A stretch of DNA of 14,052 nt from Oligoflexus sp. (GTDB lineage: Bacteria > Bdellovibrionota_B > Oligoflexia > Oligoflexales > Oligoflexaceae): positions 1 to 14,052 of the forward strand of contig JBGSTX010000194.1 of NCBI GenBank assembly GCA_041736305.1, read 5' to 3'. The stretch's first letter is position 1, and every line of letters starts with the position of its first letter. The notes under the pieces are model-generated. The model did not search any database. It saw nothing but the letters and a program-made list of their open reading frames with translations, and was not told the origin of the DNA. A program made the position numbers and the translations under genes. This document shows, piece after piece, positions 2,665-14,052 of this stretch.

Positions 2665-3549
2665 TCAAGCTTCCGTGCGCGGACGCAGGTGTTCTTTGAG
2701 CGCGACCAGGGTGAGGACGAGGATGGGTAGAAGCAGGATGCTGGCCTGGAACAGATGATGACCTAGGGTGCCGATGACACCACCGGCGATAAAACTGAGA
2801 AAGATGATCGACTGGAACGCAAAGCGCCCCCCGCCGAGTCGATGCGCGAAGGCAGCAAAAAAAATCAAAAAACCCTTCATCCAGCCGCTTCTCCGCCAAA
2901 GATGAAGAGCACTGCTCAAAGCTGCGCCCAGTTCGATGCCGATATCCGTGGCGACGCCAGTCATGTGGGTCGTCCGAACGATGGCCCCCGAGGCCTGTCT
3001 GAGCATCGCATTCTGCATCCCCATGGCCGTCGAGAGGAGGAGCGTGACCTGCCCGTTCCCCTTGCCTAGCCTATTGACGGAATACATGAAGAGGAGAAGC
3101 AAGGCGGCTTCGATGAGCACTGGCGAGGTGTATTTGACCCGAGACGAGGCCGCCGTATGCCCGCGGAGCAGCAAAGAAGTGAGTAAGGCTCCAAAAATAA
3201 AACACAGGATCTCGAAGAGGAAGATTAGGGCTAGACTGCCGTGAGACGTTGCATACTCGATAGCTACGTGAGTAGCATTGCCAGAGATATGGGACACGAA
3301 AGTCCCAAATTCAAGGAAAGATATGGCATTCACCAATCCAGCCACCACGGCGAGAACGGTTGCGAGTTGGAGGTTTTCTTGAAAGCTACGCAGAAAGCGC
3401 TTGGTGCCGCGGGCCATCTGATCGGCAATGGGTCCGAGCTGCGAGGACGTGCGGGTGGGTCTGGGAATCAGTCGTTTCCCGTGAGATTCCACATCTGATT
3501 CGACCTGCGGTGCACCGGAGTTCCGGTTCCGCCTGGAACTGTTTTGCAT
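2665..3549 (-). CDS. YoaK / DUF1275 family integral membrane protein
   Basis: Family motifs 'LAVVAGLVNAISFL..FVSHISGNAT', 'AMGMQNA' and 'VRTTHMTGVATDIG', plus several hydrophobic helices. The start is uncertain (TTG 3606, ATG 3549 or ATG 3417). Confidence 0.88.
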   Translation of the reverse strand: MQNSSRRNRNSGAPQVESDVESHGKRLIPRPTRTSSQLGPIADQMARGTKRFLRSFQENLQLATVLAVVAGLVNAISFLEFGTFVSHISGNATHVAIEYATSHGSLALIFLFEILCFIFGALLTSLLLRGHTAASSRVKYTSPVLIEAALLLLFMYSVNRLGKGNGQVTLLLSTAMGMQNAMLRQASGAIVRTTHMTGVATDIGIELGAALSSALHLWRRSGWMKGFLIFFAAFAHRLGGGRFAFQSIIFLSFIAGGVIGTLGHHLFQASILLLPILVLTLVALKEHLRPRTEA

Positions 3550-3678
3550 AGAGCCCGCTCTAGAGTTGCTGTATTCATTGTAAGACAGCTCCCTTGCGCT
3601 TGCCAAGCCAGTGCCCGAATATACTCTCCCTCTTCGCTCACTGAGCTGTGCTTCTGAGGGAAGGGATTTTCGAGCTTG

Positions 3679-3771
3679 TTAAAGTTGTTTAAAAATGCTG
3701 TAGAGCGTAAAGATGAGGAAGATGGAAATAGCGATTTTGCGAGCGTATTTCTTGATGGTGTACCGACGCAT
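3679..3771 (-). CDS. Putative 30-aa small membrane protein (MRRYTIKKYARKIAISIFLIFTLYSIFKQL)
   Basis: ATG preceded by AAAGGACCTT, nearly identical to the hemH RBS context AAAGGACCCTT. The RBS overlaps the TAA of the upstream lipoprotein gene. Basic N-terminus followed by one hydrophobic segment. Confidence 0.55.
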   Translation of the reverse strand: MRRYTIKKYARKIAISIFLIFTLYSIFKQL

Positions 3772-3779
3772 AAGGTCCT

Positions 3780-4232
3780 TTAACGGAGGCAAATATTGCG
3801 GTAAATCATGGTCGTTGGCCGAATTTCGATTTCTATTTGATTGCTTACGCCACCTGCGAAGGCCTGTGCTTCGGCTGTCCACACACCAAAGATCCCAGCC
3901 TCTACGCCTGGGACGGGAGTCACATCGCTCAGTTTCTTAACGAGTTGAAATTCACTCGCACTCAGAACGAGACTCTGCTCACTCTGCAATTCGTAGTCTA
4001 AAGCCAAAGAGACAAAGCTGATTTCGCAAGGAGTGATAATATCGCTCCGCTGTGTTGGACCAGCTTCATCTATAATAATCTGTTTTGCCGAAACGTTGAA
4101 GCGGATGCGGCCTTCGGTACTCACGGTATCCTTGGTGGGAGCATAAGGGCCACCGTCTTCAGCACCGCAGGCAAGTAGAGTGACCGTCATTAGCAGTAAG
4201 CCGAGGCTGGGACGCTGAAGAATTGCGCGCAT
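3780..4232 (-). CDS. Hypothetical lipoprotein, 150 aa
   Basis: ATG 4232 with a GGAG RBS. Signal peptide MRAILQRPSLGLLLMTVTLLA-C with lipobox LLAC. The mature region looks beta-rich. Confidence 0.75.
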   Translation of the reverse strand: MRAILQRPSLGLLLMTVTLLACGAEDGGPYAPTKDTVSTEGRIRFNVSAKQIIIDEAGPTQRSDIITPCEISFVSLALDYELQSEQSLVLSASEFQLVKKLSDVTPVPGVEAGIFGVWTAEAQAFAGGVSNQIEIEIRPTTMIYRNICLR

Positions 4233-4305
4233 AGTCTGTCTCCACCATTGATAATCAGATCTAGCTGATTTTCCCGAGGGAGGCAAGCGCCGAGGATCTA
4301 CTACC

Positions 4306-5733
4306 CTAGGGCGTGACAAGGCTTTGGAAGTAAGAATCGTCGACCTCTTCGACCAGTCCTCCGGAATCCTTGCTTTTTGGCTTGAGTTCGGTATTTTGTT
4401 CGTTTGGCTTATTTAGAACCGGAGGGCTCTTAGAAGCCAAAACATCGGCCGGCATCCCATCCAGTTGCTGGAGGGCCGCGCTCGCTGCAGATAAATTTCC
4501 TCCGCGCCGCAGGATCGACTGCACGACCGCGAGATTGTGCTTGGCCTTGCGCAGCTTAGGGTCAAGGCTGTTCGCTCGTTCGAAGGCGGCGATTGCGGTC
4601 TTGCCTTTCCCCCATTTTACGAGCCCAAGACCCATATTAAACAAGACCCGAGCGACCACGGCATTATCTTTATTCACCATTCCGATAGCGGTTTTATAGA
4701 GGCTGAGACCCTGTTTGAAGTGCTGGTGCCGTATAGCAAGGATAGCTGCCCCATTGAAAATGGCGGCGATTTCTTGAGGATTCTCCATCTGGCCGAGGAG
4801 TTTCATGGCTTCATTGAGATGACCGCCCAGTAGGTCGCACTGCGCCTTGCCAACTTTGGCATCTTGAAAGTCTTTATCGACTTTGAGAGCGTTGTTGAAG
4901 CTGCCTAGAGCGTCATTGACTTTATCGAGATTCAAGAGTACGCGCCCGAGGTCGACGAGGCGTTCGACGTTGTGCGGACTGATCAGATTAGCTTGTTTGA
5001 GATAGGCTTCGGCGTCGGCAAAACGTCCGACTTTCATTGCGCAGCGGGCGAGCAGATGTTTCGTGCGGAGGTCGCCCGGAAACTGCGCTGCTGTATCCTT
5101 GAGCCAGCGTTCGGCTTCTTCGAGTTTGCCGGCTTCGGAGAGACTGTAGCCGTATTCAACGGCAGCCCGTAAATTATCTGTTTCGCTGAGGCAAAGCTCT
5201 TTAAGGCAATTGGCTGAGCCTTCCCAGTCACCGTTCTTTCTATATTCGCCCGCCTGCCGAAAGGCTTCATGACTGGCTTCACTGACGAGAGTGAAATTGA
5301 GGAGTTCGTCGAGATTTTTGACAATCTGTGCCTGGGATATTTCCCCGGTATGAATCTGCATGACATTGTACTCGCCTGCCACTGCTACGACGCGTTCGGA
5401 AACATCCAAGGCGATGAAATAGATAGGCCTGGTGTCGACGCGATTCGGTCCTTGCGCCGTGCGCAAAGCTTTGACGACTTTCTGCTCGCCGCATTCCCAG
5501 TCGATGACCAGCATGCTCTCCGGGTTTTGCCGCAGATCATCGCAGCACTCCTGCAAGGTTTCAGCTACTTTAAGCTCGAGAATGCCATACTGTTTCAGCT
5601 CGCGCTGCATTACCGAACGCACAGTGGTTCGGCTGATGAAGAGCGATGCGCGCGCCACACTCAAACGATTGTGTCGCTTCTCACCTTCAAGGCCACTGGC
5701 CTGTGCGAAATCGAAAGCTTTGGCAGCACCCAT
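4306..5733 (-). CDS. Atypical receiver (CheY-like) domain + TPR repeat protein, 475 aa
   Basis: N-terminal alpha/beta segment with 'MLVIDWE' and 'PIYFIA' in REC-like spacing, followed by multiple TPRs (e.g. RLVDLGRVLLNLDKVNDALGSFNNALKVD; VLFNMGLGLVKWGKGKTAIAAFERANSLDP). ATG 5733 has AGGA upstream. Confidence 0.8.
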   Translation of the reverse strand: MGAAKAFDFAQASGLEGEKRHNRLSVARASLFISRTTVRSVMQRELKQYGILELKVAETLQECCDDLRQNPESMLVIDWECGEQKVVKALRTAQGPNRVDTRPIYFIALDVSERVVAVAGEYNVMQIHTGEISQAQIVKNLDELLNFTLVSEASHEAFRQAGEYRKNGDWEGSANCLKELCLSETDNLRAAVEYGYSLSEAGKLEEAERWLKDTAAQFPGDLRTKHLLARCAMKVGRFADAEAYLKQANLISPHNVERLVDLGRVLLNLDKVNDALGSFNNALKVDKDFQDAKVGKAQCDLLGGHLNEAMKLLGQMENPQEIAAIFNGAAILAIRHQHFKQGLSLYKTAIGMVNKDNAVVARVLFNMGLGLVKWGKGKTAIAAFERANSLDPKLRKAKHNLAVVQSILRRGGNLSAASAALQQLDGMPADVLASKSPPVLNKPNEQNTELKPKSKDSGGLVEEVDDSYFQSLVTP

Positions 5734-9757: not shown

Positions 9758-10125
9758 CTTCCTGAACAAGGCATGACACTTTCGAGTGGGTATGCCTTGG
9801 AAAAATGATTATGAGTCATCTCGTACTCCTTGTCCCGCTCTGATTACAGCTCCGGAAGTCCTTTGCTGCTTCCTGAGGATCCTGACGTCGCTTCGCAAAA
9901 TATCGCGCAATGCTCACAAACAAGACTTCTTTCAACTGATTCAAGACAATCAAGAAAACCTCATGCAAACATTTTTCCAAGATTCAGATTATTTGGCGAA
10001 TGTGGTGCATTCTGCTCATGTCATAATACAAATCATAAGCAGCGCGTTAAAACATTCATCATTGGTATAATGAATGCATGTAAACTCAGTCACGAAGTTT
10101 GATTTGTTTCGGCAGGAGAATATGC

Positions 10126-11160
10126 ATGGAAGAGATTTTCGCGGTCGGTCCGCAAGGTACACTTCACATACTCGGCATCAAGCTGGTCGGCCTCAATGCC
10201 GAAAATGCTGGCAAGCTCCTGATCACGGTAATCTTCATCAGCCTCACACTTCTCGTGGCGAAGCTCTTCCGAAGCCTTGCTCGCCATACACTGAAAGGCC
10301 GCAGCAACGTCAAATTCATTTTCTGGACCCGTCAGGGGATCAACCTGGCATTGGCGCTGATTCTAATTTTAGGCGTGTGTTCCATATGGTTTGATGACCC
10401 AAGCCGACTGACAACGGCTGTCGGATTAATTACGGCAGGTCTAGCCTTTGCGCTTCAGCGAGTCGTGACGGCTTTGGCCGGTTACCTTGTTATCCTGCGC
10501 GGCAAAACCTTTGGCGTGGGGGATCGGATCGTGATGGGCGGCGTGCGAGGCGATGTGGTTGCGTTAGGTTTTATCCAAACTTCGATCATGGAAATGGGTC
10601 AGCCGCCTGGAGTTCAATCGGATCAGCCGGGCATGTGGGTGAGGAGTCGTCAATACACAGGGCGTATCGTGACAGTGCCTAACAGCAAAATCTTTGATGA
10701 GCCCGTTTATAATTATACGCGAGATTTTGGCTATATTTGGGAGGAAATGAATCTACCCATATCCTACACAGCCGATCGCAAAAAGGCGGAACAGATTCTT
10801 TTGGAAGCAGCCACACGTCATCAGGCCAAGATCGATTCCCTGGAGAAAGGTGATATTGAGGAGCTTCAACGCCGCTACTACGTCGTCAATCTTCAAGACT
10901 TTCAACCGCGCGTCTTCTATAGAATGACTGATAACTGGCTGGAACTTTCGGTGCGTTTTATCACAGAAGCTCATGGTGTGCGCAGCGTGAAAGACAGAAT
11001 TTCTCGCGAGATGTTAGATGCCATGGAGGCAGCTGGGATTGGGGTTGCTTCAGCAACGTTTGAAGTAGTGGGTCTTCCCCCCTTGCGGATTGAATCGGAT
11101 GGGCTCATATCTCGACAGAAAAGTAGTGAAACGGCAAACGCACGCGTGGAACTGTCATGA
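10126..11160 (+). CDS. mscS: Small-conductance mechanosensitive channel (MscS family), 344 aa
   Basis: 'GLITAGLAFALQRVVTALAGYLVILRGKTFGVGDRIVMGGVRGDV', 'GRIVTVPNSKIF' and 'NYTRDFGYIWEE'. ATG 10126 has AGGAG 7 nt upstream. Confidence 0.92.
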   Translation: MEEIFAVGPQGTLHILGIKLVGLNAENAGKLLITVIFISLTLLVAKLFRSLARHTLKGRSNVKFIFWTRQGINLALALILILGVCSIWFDDPSRLTTAVGLITAGLAFALQRVVTALAGYLVILRGKTFGVGDRIVMGGVRGDVVALGFIQTSIMEMGQPPGVQSDQPGMWVRSRQYTGRIVTVPNSKIFDEPVYNYTRDFGYIWEEMNLPISYTADRKKAEQILLEAATRHQAKIDSLEKGDIEELQRRYYVVNLQDFQPRVFYRMTDNWLELSVRFITEAHGVRSVKDRISREMLDAMEAAGIGVASATFEVVGLPPLRIESDGLISRQKSSETANARVELS

Positions 11161-11167
11161 GGTCAAA

Positions 11168-11671
11168 ATGATTTTTGAAAGCTGGCAAGGAATTTTGCGC
11201 GTTCTTATTCTAGGCTCATGTGCCTATTCAGGCCTTGTCCTGATGCTGCGGATATCAGGAAAAAGAACCCTTTCGAAAATGAACAGTTTTGATCTCGTCG
11301 TGACGATTGCTTTAGGATCGACTCTTGCCACGATCATTCTTTCAAAGAGCGTCGCGCTGGCAGAAGGGTTGACGGCCTTTGCTCTACTGATTGGGCTTCA
11401 GTTCACCGTGGCTTGGCTTTCCTGCCGTTCACGCATGTTCAATCGTATTATTAAAAATGAGCCTGTCCTGCTCGTACGAGGTGGTCAATTGCTTAGAGAT
11501 GCTATGTACAAGGAACGGGTGACGGAAGAAGAAATTCTGCAGGCCATTCGCAATCAAAGTGTTGCTGCATTGAGTGAAGTTGAAGCTCTTGTTATGGAGA
11601 CTGACGGTTCCATGTCAGTCATCAGCAATTTAGCCCAGAAACCCGCTTCTTGGCATAATGTTAAGTCTTGA
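11168..11671 (+). CDS. DUF421 / YetF-YcaP family membrane protein, 167 aa
   Basis: 'LRISGKRTLSKMNSFDLVVTIALGSTLA', 'EPVLLVRGG' and 'VMETDGSMSVI'. ATG lies 7 nt after the mscS stop with a GAGG RBS, consistent with an operon. Confidence 0.92.
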   Translation: MIFESWQGILRVLILGSCAYSGLVLMLRISGKRTLSKMNSFDLVVTIALGSTLATIILSKSVALAEGLTAFALLIGLQFTVAWLSCRSRMFNRIIKNEPVLLVRGGQLLRDAMYKERVTEEEILQAIRNQSVAALSEVEALVMETDGSMSVISNLAQKPASWHNVKS

Positions 11672-13088: not shown

Positions 13089-13193
13089 GACCTTGAATGC
13101 GAGGCTCGCATTATTTCTATCTCAATGGTTTTGATAGAGCTTCCTTAACACCTACGATTTGTCGAAGAAAACCTGTCGGAAGGAGATACTCTT

Positions 13194-13850
13194 ATGAACA
13201 CGGTCAAAGGTCTTATAGCAAGTGCTTGCTTCGGCAGCATTCTGAGCGCCGATGCCCTGTTAACTCAGGTACAAGCTCAAGACAAGGAAAGCAAGCCTGA
13301 CAAAGCAAGCACGACAAGTGCCGGTTCGCCATCGGAGACTCAAACACCGGCTCCCAGCACAATTCGATTTGTTACGGTTTTTTTTGAAAGGTTGGAGAAA
13401 GATTCGGCAACAGTCAATTTCTCAAAAGGTACGGCTGAACTAGTTCCTGCGGAACAGGAGAAACTTAAGTCCCTGATACCAAATTATAGGAATGATAAAG
13501 AGGTTGATAAGATATATGTAGCCGCCTGGGGCGATCGGCCTTATCCATCGGAAAAAGGCGACAAGTTGCCAGATGCCGAAGAAAAGCTAGCTGAGCAACG
13601 TGCCGAAAAGCTGGAGGAGTTCTTGGAAAAGAACGGTGTCAGTGATGTCGAGAAATTTACCATGGCAGAGAAGCCCAGTTGGATTGCTAAGGCCTTCCAT
13701 CTTGACTCTGCTCAAGTTAAAGGAGCAGCACAAAATACGGGTACCGATAGCCTTAACGAAGATAGGATTGAAAAACTTTTGAATCAAAAGGGTGGCCCGT
13801 CTAAGGCAGTCGTTATCGTGAAACACAAACAGGAAATGAAGAATTTCTGA
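13194..13850 (+). CDS. Secreted protein with an OmpA C-terminal-like domain, 218 aa
   Basis: AAGGAG RBS, N-terminal signal peptide ending around VQA, Ser/Thr/Pro linker, then 'TVNFSKGTAELVPAEQEKLKSL...IYVAAWGD...KLAEQRAEKLEEFLEKNG', matching the OmpA_C layout (F..g.a.L / v.G.tD / Ls..RA..V..yL...G). Confidence 0.7.
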   Translation: MNTVKGLIASACFGSILSADALLTQVQAQDKESKPDKASTTSAGSPSETQTPAPSTIRFVTVFFERLEKDSATVNFSKGTAELVPAEQEKLKSLIPNYRNDKEVDKIYVAAWGDRPYPSEKGDKLPDAEEKLAEQRAEKLEEFLEKNGVSDVEKFTMAEKPSWIAKAFHLDSAQVKGAAQNTGTDSLNEDRIEKLLNQKGGPSKAVVIVKHKQEMKNF

Positions 13851-13906
13851 AAAGGTTTACTCACATCGGGGAAGCTTATTGGTCTGTCTTCAAAGCTTTG
13901 TGTTTC

Positions 13907-14052
13907 ACACGAAAGGGAGAACTATTGTCAACTACCCGCCCCTAAAGGGGCGAGCTTGTAAGGAGAAATCCAAGCAGTCTTCACGTTGACCCGACTCAGC
14001 AAGGGATTCATATCCCAAGCTATGTTAGGAGCAAATATATAGGTACCCCCGG
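13907..14052 (+). ncRNA. Putative omegaRNA (HEARO-like): 5' guide (~13907-13926) plus partial scaffold
   Basis: GTCAAC (13927-32) pairs with GTTGAC (13985-90), enclosing hairpins CGCCCC/GGGGCG and GCTTG/CAAGC. Next come GACTCAGC, the GGGAT-TCAT-ATCCC hairpin, CTATGTT (cf. CTACGTT) and ATAGGTACC, in the order I recognise from IscB omegaRNA scaffolds. The guide boundary is inferred. Confidence 0.72.
13927..14052 (+). mobile_element. End of an IS200/IS605-superfamily (IscB-type) element, truncated by the window
   Basis: GTCAACTACCCGCCCCTAAAGGGGCGAGCTTG, with subterminal hairpin CGCCCC-TAAA-GGGGCG (13937-13952), is the characteristic start of IscB/RRXRR-associated elements. No transposase or iscB ORF is visible in the window. 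Confidence 0.8.

Follow-up and report, generated by a model that had tools for sequence, protein, structure and literature searches.

The window analysed here is a 14,052-nt stretch that constitutes the entire contig C363 of a 5.02-Mb Oligoflexus assembly with 392 contigs. It breaks off at position 14052 shortly after a series of nested inverted repeats, which raises the question of what kind of RNA or mobile element is cut off at this point, and whether a gene for an RNA-guided nuclease belongs to it. A preliminary description had read the repeats as an IscB omegaRNA scaffold lying at the window edge, with its guide in the preceding host DNA. The four stems that it claimed are all present in the sequence at 13927-14021, and the window end is composed as follows.

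13927..14052, + strand: 5′ part of an omegaRNA (HEARO) scaffold, beginning at the transposon left boundary (Rfam HEARO and covariation)
13927..13990, + strand: outer stem, GTCAAC (13927-13932) with GTTGAC (13985-13990), enclosing two hairpins
13937..13952, + strand: hairpin CGCCCC (13937-13942) with GGGGCG (13947-13952), loop TAAA
13954..13975, + strand: hairpin GCTTG (13954-13958) with CAAGC (13971-13975), read from the sequence
13998..14021, + strand: hairpin GGGAT (14003-14007) with ATCCC (14012-14016), extended by AGC (13998-14000) with GCT (14019-14021), giving AGC-AA-GGGAT / ATCCC-AA-GCT
14020..14047, + strand: CTATGTT (14020-14026) and then ATAGGTACC (14039-14047), 3′ of the stems

The window end belongs to the HEARO RNA family

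In a permissive Rfam search of positions 13800-14052, the HEARO family (RF02033) matched 13927-14052 on the plus strand over model positions 1-102 of 211, with 32.8 bits (E 2e-5) and a match truncated at its 3′ side. When the entire window was searched at gathering scores, which for HEARO is 83 bits, 0 matches were returned, because just 126 of the approximately 235 scaffold bases lie inside the window. The sister copies on contigs C12 and C65, which are 98-99% identical to the window over the common part and cover approximately 232-238 nt of the repeat up to their contig ends, matched the full model at 110.8 and 109.8 bits, respectively; the covariance-model check proposed in the preliminary description thus gave a 3′-truncated match below the gathering score at 13927-14052 and full matches above it in the sisters. 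The full model was matched in all six loci searched (103.6-134.8 bits), among them C12, C65 and the leaders of two intact iscB genes on C219 and C254. Genome-wide, 14 HEARO matches were obtained at E ≤ 0.001, eight of them above the gathering score, while none of 14 control genomes gave a HEARO match. Further matches in the genome are located at C59:3643-3885 (125 bits), C310:2-215 (70 bits) and C216:1309-1458 (30 bits), and that on C59, which has no nearby RRXRR match, is probably another ORF-less copy.

Covariation was evaluated in a MAFFT alignment of 17 copies from the window's genome and its relatives. The proposed stems were paired in 85.2% of the cells, compared with 30-40% when the partners were slid against each other, changes on both sides were found at 16 of 25 pairs, and none of 500 shuffles reached any of the five measures. 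The outer helix GTCAAC/GTTGAC was paired to 99% over the 17 sequences, with exchanges of CG to AU and of CG to UA, and the hairpin at 13998..14021 had both-side changes in each of its eight pairs with 96.5% of cells paired. In hairpin 2, four of six pairs changed on both sides. The low pairing of the GCTTG/CAAGC helix, 56%, arises because MAFFT misaligns this indel-rich stretch. At 14020-14026, CTATGTT occurs in the window and C12 copies, and the other 15 of the 17 sequences, as well as the HEARO consensus, have a C at the corresponding position (CTACGTT in 13 of them).

The plus strand was predicted to fold at −45.4 kcal/mol (z −2.76), a stability reached by none of 200 shuffles, and the minus strand gave z −2.51, with 2 of 200 shuffles as stable. 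Since both strands fold about equally, folding alone does not assign the strand. We regard it as secure that 13927-14052 are the first 126 nt of an approximately 235-nt omegaRNA (HEARO) scaffold.

Copies of the scaffold share one left boundary and lie in different flanks

A BLAST search against the window's own genome located the scaffold at 14 places including the window itself, namely four near-identical copies (97.6-100%) on C363 (the window), C12, C65 and C217, eight further places with 70-78% identity, and two short stubs on C51 and C150. The 30-nt 5′ flanks differed in all 14 copies, with the divergence falling exactly before GTCAAC at 13927. This is what the preliminary description had predicted, both in expecting other genomic copies with different 5′ flanks and in setting the guide/scaffold boundary at 13926/13927, and its overall reading of an IscB omegaRNA scaffold at the window edge is borne out by the HEARO match, the covariation, this boundary and the copies. 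The two stubs (C51:373-407 and C150:4661-4706, 35-46 nt) comprise the first stem and hairpin only and then pass into unrelated DNA; the C51 stub is also a loose end among the contigs of the likely source metagenome.

In this metagenome, the sequence directly before 13925-13927 is a different one in at least seven contigs, and the word depth climbs from 8.3 (flank) to 37.6 (13974-14052), which is a summed depth and not a strict copy number. Both the depth rise and the alternative flanks fit several copies. With approximately 4-5 nearly identical copies, short-read assembly breaks inside the element, and therefore the contig, and the window with it, ends at 14052; the element likewise explains several assembly breaks in this genome. 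Scaffold DNA was detected in 8 of 13 other Oligoflexus genomes and in 0 of the 27 genomes searched outside the genus.

At the opposite side of the elements, 17 right ends followed by diverse downstream DNA were collected. Their junctions continue as ATGAA in 16 cases, and the 17th, a divergent copy on C284, continues as GTGAG. No repeat of the left flank was present at the right side, that is, no target-site duplication was visible. By eye, hairpins were recognized in the right end (CCACG...CGTGG and CTCC...GGAG) and in the left end (CGCCCC/GGGGCG). According to the available portion of Kapitonov et al. (2016, PMC4810608), ISC transposons have 5′-GTCA termini, leave no target duplication when they insert at N|ATGA, and owe their mobility to Y1 transposases acting in trans. 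The ATGAA junctions fit this published ISC target site, and it is on the basis of the same available text (PMC4810608) that ATGA is counted as part of the host DNA. As a possible source of mobilisation, the Y1_Tnp profile gave four partial matches:

C337:2942-3130, partial Y1 (TnpA) profile match
C300:8-112, partial Y1 (TnpA) profile match
C53:11289-11372, partial Y1 (TnpA) profile match
C165:10755-10937, partial Y1 (TnpA) profile match

These span at most profile positions 31-121, three of the four are placed at contig ends, and a complete gene was not seen in the assembly. This suggests that the fragments represent another collapsed multi-copy IS200/IS605 element, which could mobilise the IscB elements in trans.

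The empty-site allele by which the preliminary description had hoped to define the boundary was not recovered, as none of four related genomes (80-94% complete) contains the flank 13100-13926. An empty site was also sought by means of an IS5-like repeat beside the C371 copy of a second scaffold subfamily; the repeat starts 63 nt beyond that element, and thus the element is not inserted in the repeat. An IS5-family-like transposase fragment lies there at 682-1362 of locus L009 (C371, − strand), with a second copy at C9:7613-7749.

Probable linkage of the window scaffold to an iscB gene

The scaffold very probably terminates, on the iscB-proximal side, a non-autonomous element of this Oligoflexus genome that belongs to the ISC2 (IscB) type within the IS200/IS605 superfamily. 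By homology to O. tunisiensis, the full element would likely measure approximately 1.7 kb and would consist, in this order, of the scaffold, a spacer of approximately 30 nt, an iscB gene of approximately 427 codons and a right end of approximately 85-95 nt that contains a subterminal hairpin; the insertion point of the whole would lie directly before a host ATGA(A). That the window copy itself belongs to such a complete element, with scaffold, spacer, iscB and right end, is likewise highly probable, as judged from sequence comparison of its separated parts.

All four window-type left ends (C363, C12, C65 and C217) run off contig ends, C363 before any iscB codon is reached. The assembly lacks the middle of the window-type element, between scaffold position 240 (approximately) and the HNH domain, and with it the N-terminal RRXRR and RuvC-I half of this iscB. 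Five right ends show no difference over 78 nt; four of them open the contigs C255, C217, C31 and C30, the fifth lies within C109, and in front of each stands the end of an iscB frame. On C109 this frame is open over 239 codons and contains an HNH domain (Pfam 3e-12). When compared with solved IscB chains, the C109 fragment matched TbaIscB (1.4e-12) and HfmIscB (7e-10) and aligned through the region after HNH, and its best relatives in species-representative genomes are from Oligoflexus. A tblastn search of the genome with O. tunisiensis IscB returned only the C109 fragment, starting from residue 194, and the RRXRR matches in the genome fell only in two other iscB genes:

C219:25609-27033 (L012), iscB gene of 377 aa with RRXRR and HNH, preceded by its own third-subfamily HEARO leader (full match)
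C254:3247-4724 (L013), iscB gene of 394 aa with RRXRR and HNH, preceded by its own third-subfamily HEARO leader (full match)

The two encoded proteins are 78% identical to each other and each approximately 35% identical to the O. tunisiensis-type IscB.

The connection was more complete in the relatives, where a full-length 427-aa IscB lies directly downstream of the window-type scaffold in six of eight loci, including that of O. tunisiensis:

L027, IscB element of O. tunisiensis Shr3: HEARO at 3177-3411 (130.9 bits), IscB at 3443-4726 (427 aa)

One of the two remaining loci is at a contig end, and the other (L107) is without IscB. A synteny link from the window to one of the five right-end contigs was sought by tblastx with the three best orthologous loci of the host ORF at 13194-13850 (47-53% identity), which gave no match to these contigs. 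Among the Logan contigs, which are too fragmented for this purpose, none carries the window copy into iscB; run X6 yielded only 2 partial contigs and run X21 none. A metagenome scan with a 26-mer specific to the window-type scaffold yielded 0 matches, and with a 39-mer common to O. tunisiensis it yielded one contig (L126), which carries an ORF-less copy whose start is cut off.

If the window copy carried no iscB at all, it would be an ORF-less PATE-like derivative, made of an omegaRNA and transposon ends, which is mobilised and whose RNA is used only in trans. Such elements occur in the same genome, where the second scaffold subfamily includes complete ORF-less copies inside contigs (C371, 400 nt; C342, 401 nt) and the ORF-less copies on C178 and C179 are followed directly by host genes. 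No IscB is found near the window-type locus L107 of a relative, the metagenome contig L126 is also ORF-less, and PATEs encoding omegaRNAs are mentioned in the available portion of the Meers et al. preprint (10.1101/2023.03.14.532601). Nevertheless, iscB coding sequence precedes all five right ends that are matched to the window-type scaffold through the O. tunisiensis homology, the count of four left ends against five iscB right ends leaves little room for an ORF-less window-type copy, and among the genome's right ends an ORF-less one of the window type was not seen; we therefore consider this derivative improbable. Only slightly less improbable is a decayed relic, in which the scaffold would still be recognisable and the RNA or its iscB would no longer function. 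A C-to-T change in the conserved ACGUU motif of the window and C12 copies, the absence of the N-terminal half of the cognate IscB from the assembly, and the truncated 35-46 nt stubs on C51 and C150 would agree with decay, but they stand against left ends (n = 4) that are 97.6-100% identical and right ends (n = 5) that are 100% identical over 78 nt, which points to recent spread, against the intact state of all stems in the window part, and against the C109 iscB frame, open over 239 codons with a detectable HNH domain.

A reading in which the repeats form no omegaRNA, and represent another structured repeat (REP or MITE), a riboswitch or an attenuator, could appeal to the empty Rfam result for the entire window at gathering scores and to a reverse strand that folds nearly as well. 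It is, however, exceedingly unlikely in view of a HEARO match that is strand-specific on the window and extends to the full model in the sister copies, of the same scaffold standing before complete IscB genes in relatives, and of HEARO matches in 0 of 14 control genomes. Among other candidates, the 5′ end of a group II intron, a riboswitch and a plain IS605 tnpB end were rejected with no supporting evidence, and a CRISPR repeat was rejected on a match of only 13.8 bits (E 5.1). Of the two continuations named in the preliminary description, an iscB ORF or a non-autonomous derivative, the former is strongly favoured for the window copy.

Predicted guide and its proposed transcription from upstream host DNA

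The host DNA in front of the scaffold contains the following features.

13194..13850, + strand: upstream host ORF of 218 aa, co-oriented with the scaffold (ORF list)
13907..13926, + strand: predicted guide, host DNA outside the element, reading ACACGAAAGGGAGAACTATT
13911..13926, + strand: the 16 nt nearest the scaffold, GAAAGGGAGAACTATT
13915..13919, + strand: Shine-Dalgarno-like GGGAG, 7 nt before the insertion point (read from the sequence)

A guide of 16-20 nt, reaching up to 13926, is predicted, and the 16-mer at 13911-13926 has one occurrence in the assembly at 0-1 mismatch. In the available portion of the preprint by Meers et al. (10.1101/2023.03.14.532601), a transposon end delimits the HEARO-like region that lies upstream of iscB, transcription must begin outside the element because the guide lies outside it, and IscB elements are reported to share, by preference, the orientation of the upstream gene. 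A scan of 13600-14052 for sigma-70-like promoters and terminators found none, and transcription into the guide may start in the ORF at 13194-13850 or its promoter. This ORF matched Pfam OmpA at 21.7 bits, below the cut-off of 27.2. The GGGAG at 13915..13919 is probably the orphaned ribosome-binding site of a host gene whose ATGA start was the target, in which case the window copy would have inserted just before the start codon of the gene that follows the ORF at 13194-13850 and cut it off from its ribosome-binding site, a placement that we consider probable. In the RNA library of a freshwater metatranscriptome, one contig of 272 nt spans 13927-14052 with 2 differences and ends exactly at 13927; as it comes from another habitat and may stem from library DNA or from a relative, it provides a weak hint of expression. 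Further upstream in the window, an MscS-like channel ORF (10099-11160) and a YetF/DUF421 ORF (11090-11671) overlap by approximately 70 nt in different frames.

Based on the published IscB/OMEGA model, we propose the following course for the window element. Transcription would enter from the upstream host DNA, that is, from the ORF at 13194-13850 or its promoter, and would produce an RNA composed of the guide (5′ 16-20 nt, to 13926) and the IscB-bound scaffold. A Y1 transposase acting in trans would excise the element and leave a resealed donor site consisting of the guide-match followed by ATGAA. IscB would then cut this resealed site, with the ATGAA-like sequence serving as the target-adjacent motif (TAM), and recombination with a sister copy would restore the element. 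The excision and cutting steps follow the donor-joint model, as given in the available portion of Meers et al. (10.1101/2023.03.14.532601). Since excision in this model recreates the guide-match next to ATGAA, the TAM is expected to be ATGAA-like; expression and activity of the element are likewise predicted.

Comparison with known IscB and omegaRNA systems

The window RNA agrees with HEARO RF02033 in sequence and structure, in the position of the scaffold upstream of iscB in the relatives, and in a guide taken from DNA outside the element; it differs in that the window holds the 5′ half only and in the single C-to-T change in the conserved ACGUU motif. HEARO is not mentioned in PMC2864571. 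Compared with the ISC2 elements described in the available portion of PMC4810608, the elements found here have the GTCA start and 5′-GT terminus, many copies, no visible duplication and ATGA(A) junctions in common, as well as a single iscB gene, whose linkage is for the window copy a predicted one. In contrast to that available description, the Oligoflexus host lineage is new, and a fifth base, A, is conserved after ATGA.

The closest counterpart is the element of O. tunisiensis Shr3, whose scaffold is 86% identical to the window type and whose IscB is 75% identical to the C109 fragment, and which has a similar right end followed by the host gene start ATGAAG. With the scaffold query, a single copy was found in that genome, as against approximately 4-5 copies plus ORF-less relatives in the window's genome. 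Among proteins of known structure, OgeuIscB (7xht, 7utn) as well as 9k30 and 9k2z were matched by O. tunisiensis IscB at E 6e-42 to 8e-30, a relationship that is distant. For OgeuIscB, the TAM given in the available portion of PMC12660989 is NWRRNA, compared with the ATGAA-like TAM expected here. The PATE-like IS200/IS605 derivatives in the available text of Meers et al. (10.1101/2023.03.14.532601) resemble the 400-401 nt elements of this genome, which have a full scaffold, hairpins and no ORF; unlike those PATEs, however, the elements here carry omegaRNAs of the IscB type and not of the TnpB type.

Each feature of the reading given here, a HEARO/omegaRNA, the ISC2-type IscB element that it borders and an N|ATGA target, is already in print, and the main finding leaves the knowledge of OMEGA systems unchanged. 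New are the host lineage, the particular IscB family, which matches its closest solved relatives only distantly, and the abundance, in this genome, of ORF-less omegaRNA elements at start codons. The preliminary description, which had considered an uncharacterised ortholog from a poorly sampled lineage, was fair in respect of the lineage, the genus Oligoflexus within Bdellovibrionota, whereas the kind of element is well known. The Oligoflexus elements add an uncharacterised family of IscB and omegaRNA, with a TAM that can be inferred as ATGAA-like and with natural examples of guides, which may be of interest to collectors of compact RNA-guided nucleases.

ORF-less omegaRNA elements often abut host start codons

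The second scaffold subfamily was found in the window's genome as the following ORF-less elements, together with more partial copies on C79, C80, C68, C161 and other contigs.

C371:29319-29718 (L009), ORF-less element of 400 nt with a full second-subfamily HEARO scaffold
C342:16766-16366 (L010), ORF-less element of 401 nt, abutting the ATGAA start of etfB
C178:1-341 (L101), ORF-less partial copy, abutting the start of an ilvE-like aminotransferase gene
C179:1-340 (L102), ORF-less partial copy, abutting the start of a secreted protease-like ORF

Each element is built from a full HEARO scaffold, a hairpin resembling a terminator (GCCGG...CCGGC, then a run of T) and a hairpin at the terminus. Their sequence ends with GAGG plus 6 nt directly before ATGAA. 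An iscB gene with a scaffold matching this subfamily was not found in the assembly. To place the junctions in relation to reading frames, ORFs opened by the junction ATG were counted at 16 junctions, leaving out the divergent C284 with its GTGAG. The junction ATG opens at least 97 codons at eight of the 16 and at least 100 codons at seven, against a genome background of 20.2% of ATGAA sites (2485/12292). By eye, a Shine-Dalgarno-like motif was recognized 5-7 nt from the junction in 7 of 14 left flanks, the GGGAG of the window being one of them.

We tentatively raise the possibility, which we hold to be rather less than an even chance, that the ATGA target leads sense-oriented elements to land exactly between a host ribosome-binding site and its start codon, with three consequences. 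Transcripts of the guide and the scaffold would come from the host promoter and 5′ UTR; the 3′ end of the element, with GGGAG or GAGG 6-9 nt before the junction, would act as a replacement ribosome-binding site, and essential genes such as etfB and ilvE would stay translated; and the 400-401 nt ORF-less derivatives, with their own terminator-like hairpin, would form a trans-acting guide pool for the window-type IscB or, alternatively, would regulate the genes that they precede. No mention of start-codon placement was found by full-text literature searches or in the available portions of PMC4810608 and the Meers preprint; Weinberg 2009, Altae-Tran 2021 or supplements may well cover it. If it holds, the placement of the element and its ORF-less relatives at start codons of housekeeping genes would be a small, testable point on how guide transcription is secured and harm to the host is limited.

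A similar arrangement was observed in the metagenome contig L126 (Ga0163110_10070219, reverse strand), in which an ORF-less element ends with ...TTTTTTG directly before ATGAAA, and the junction ATG starts an ORF with a signal-peptide-like N-terminus.
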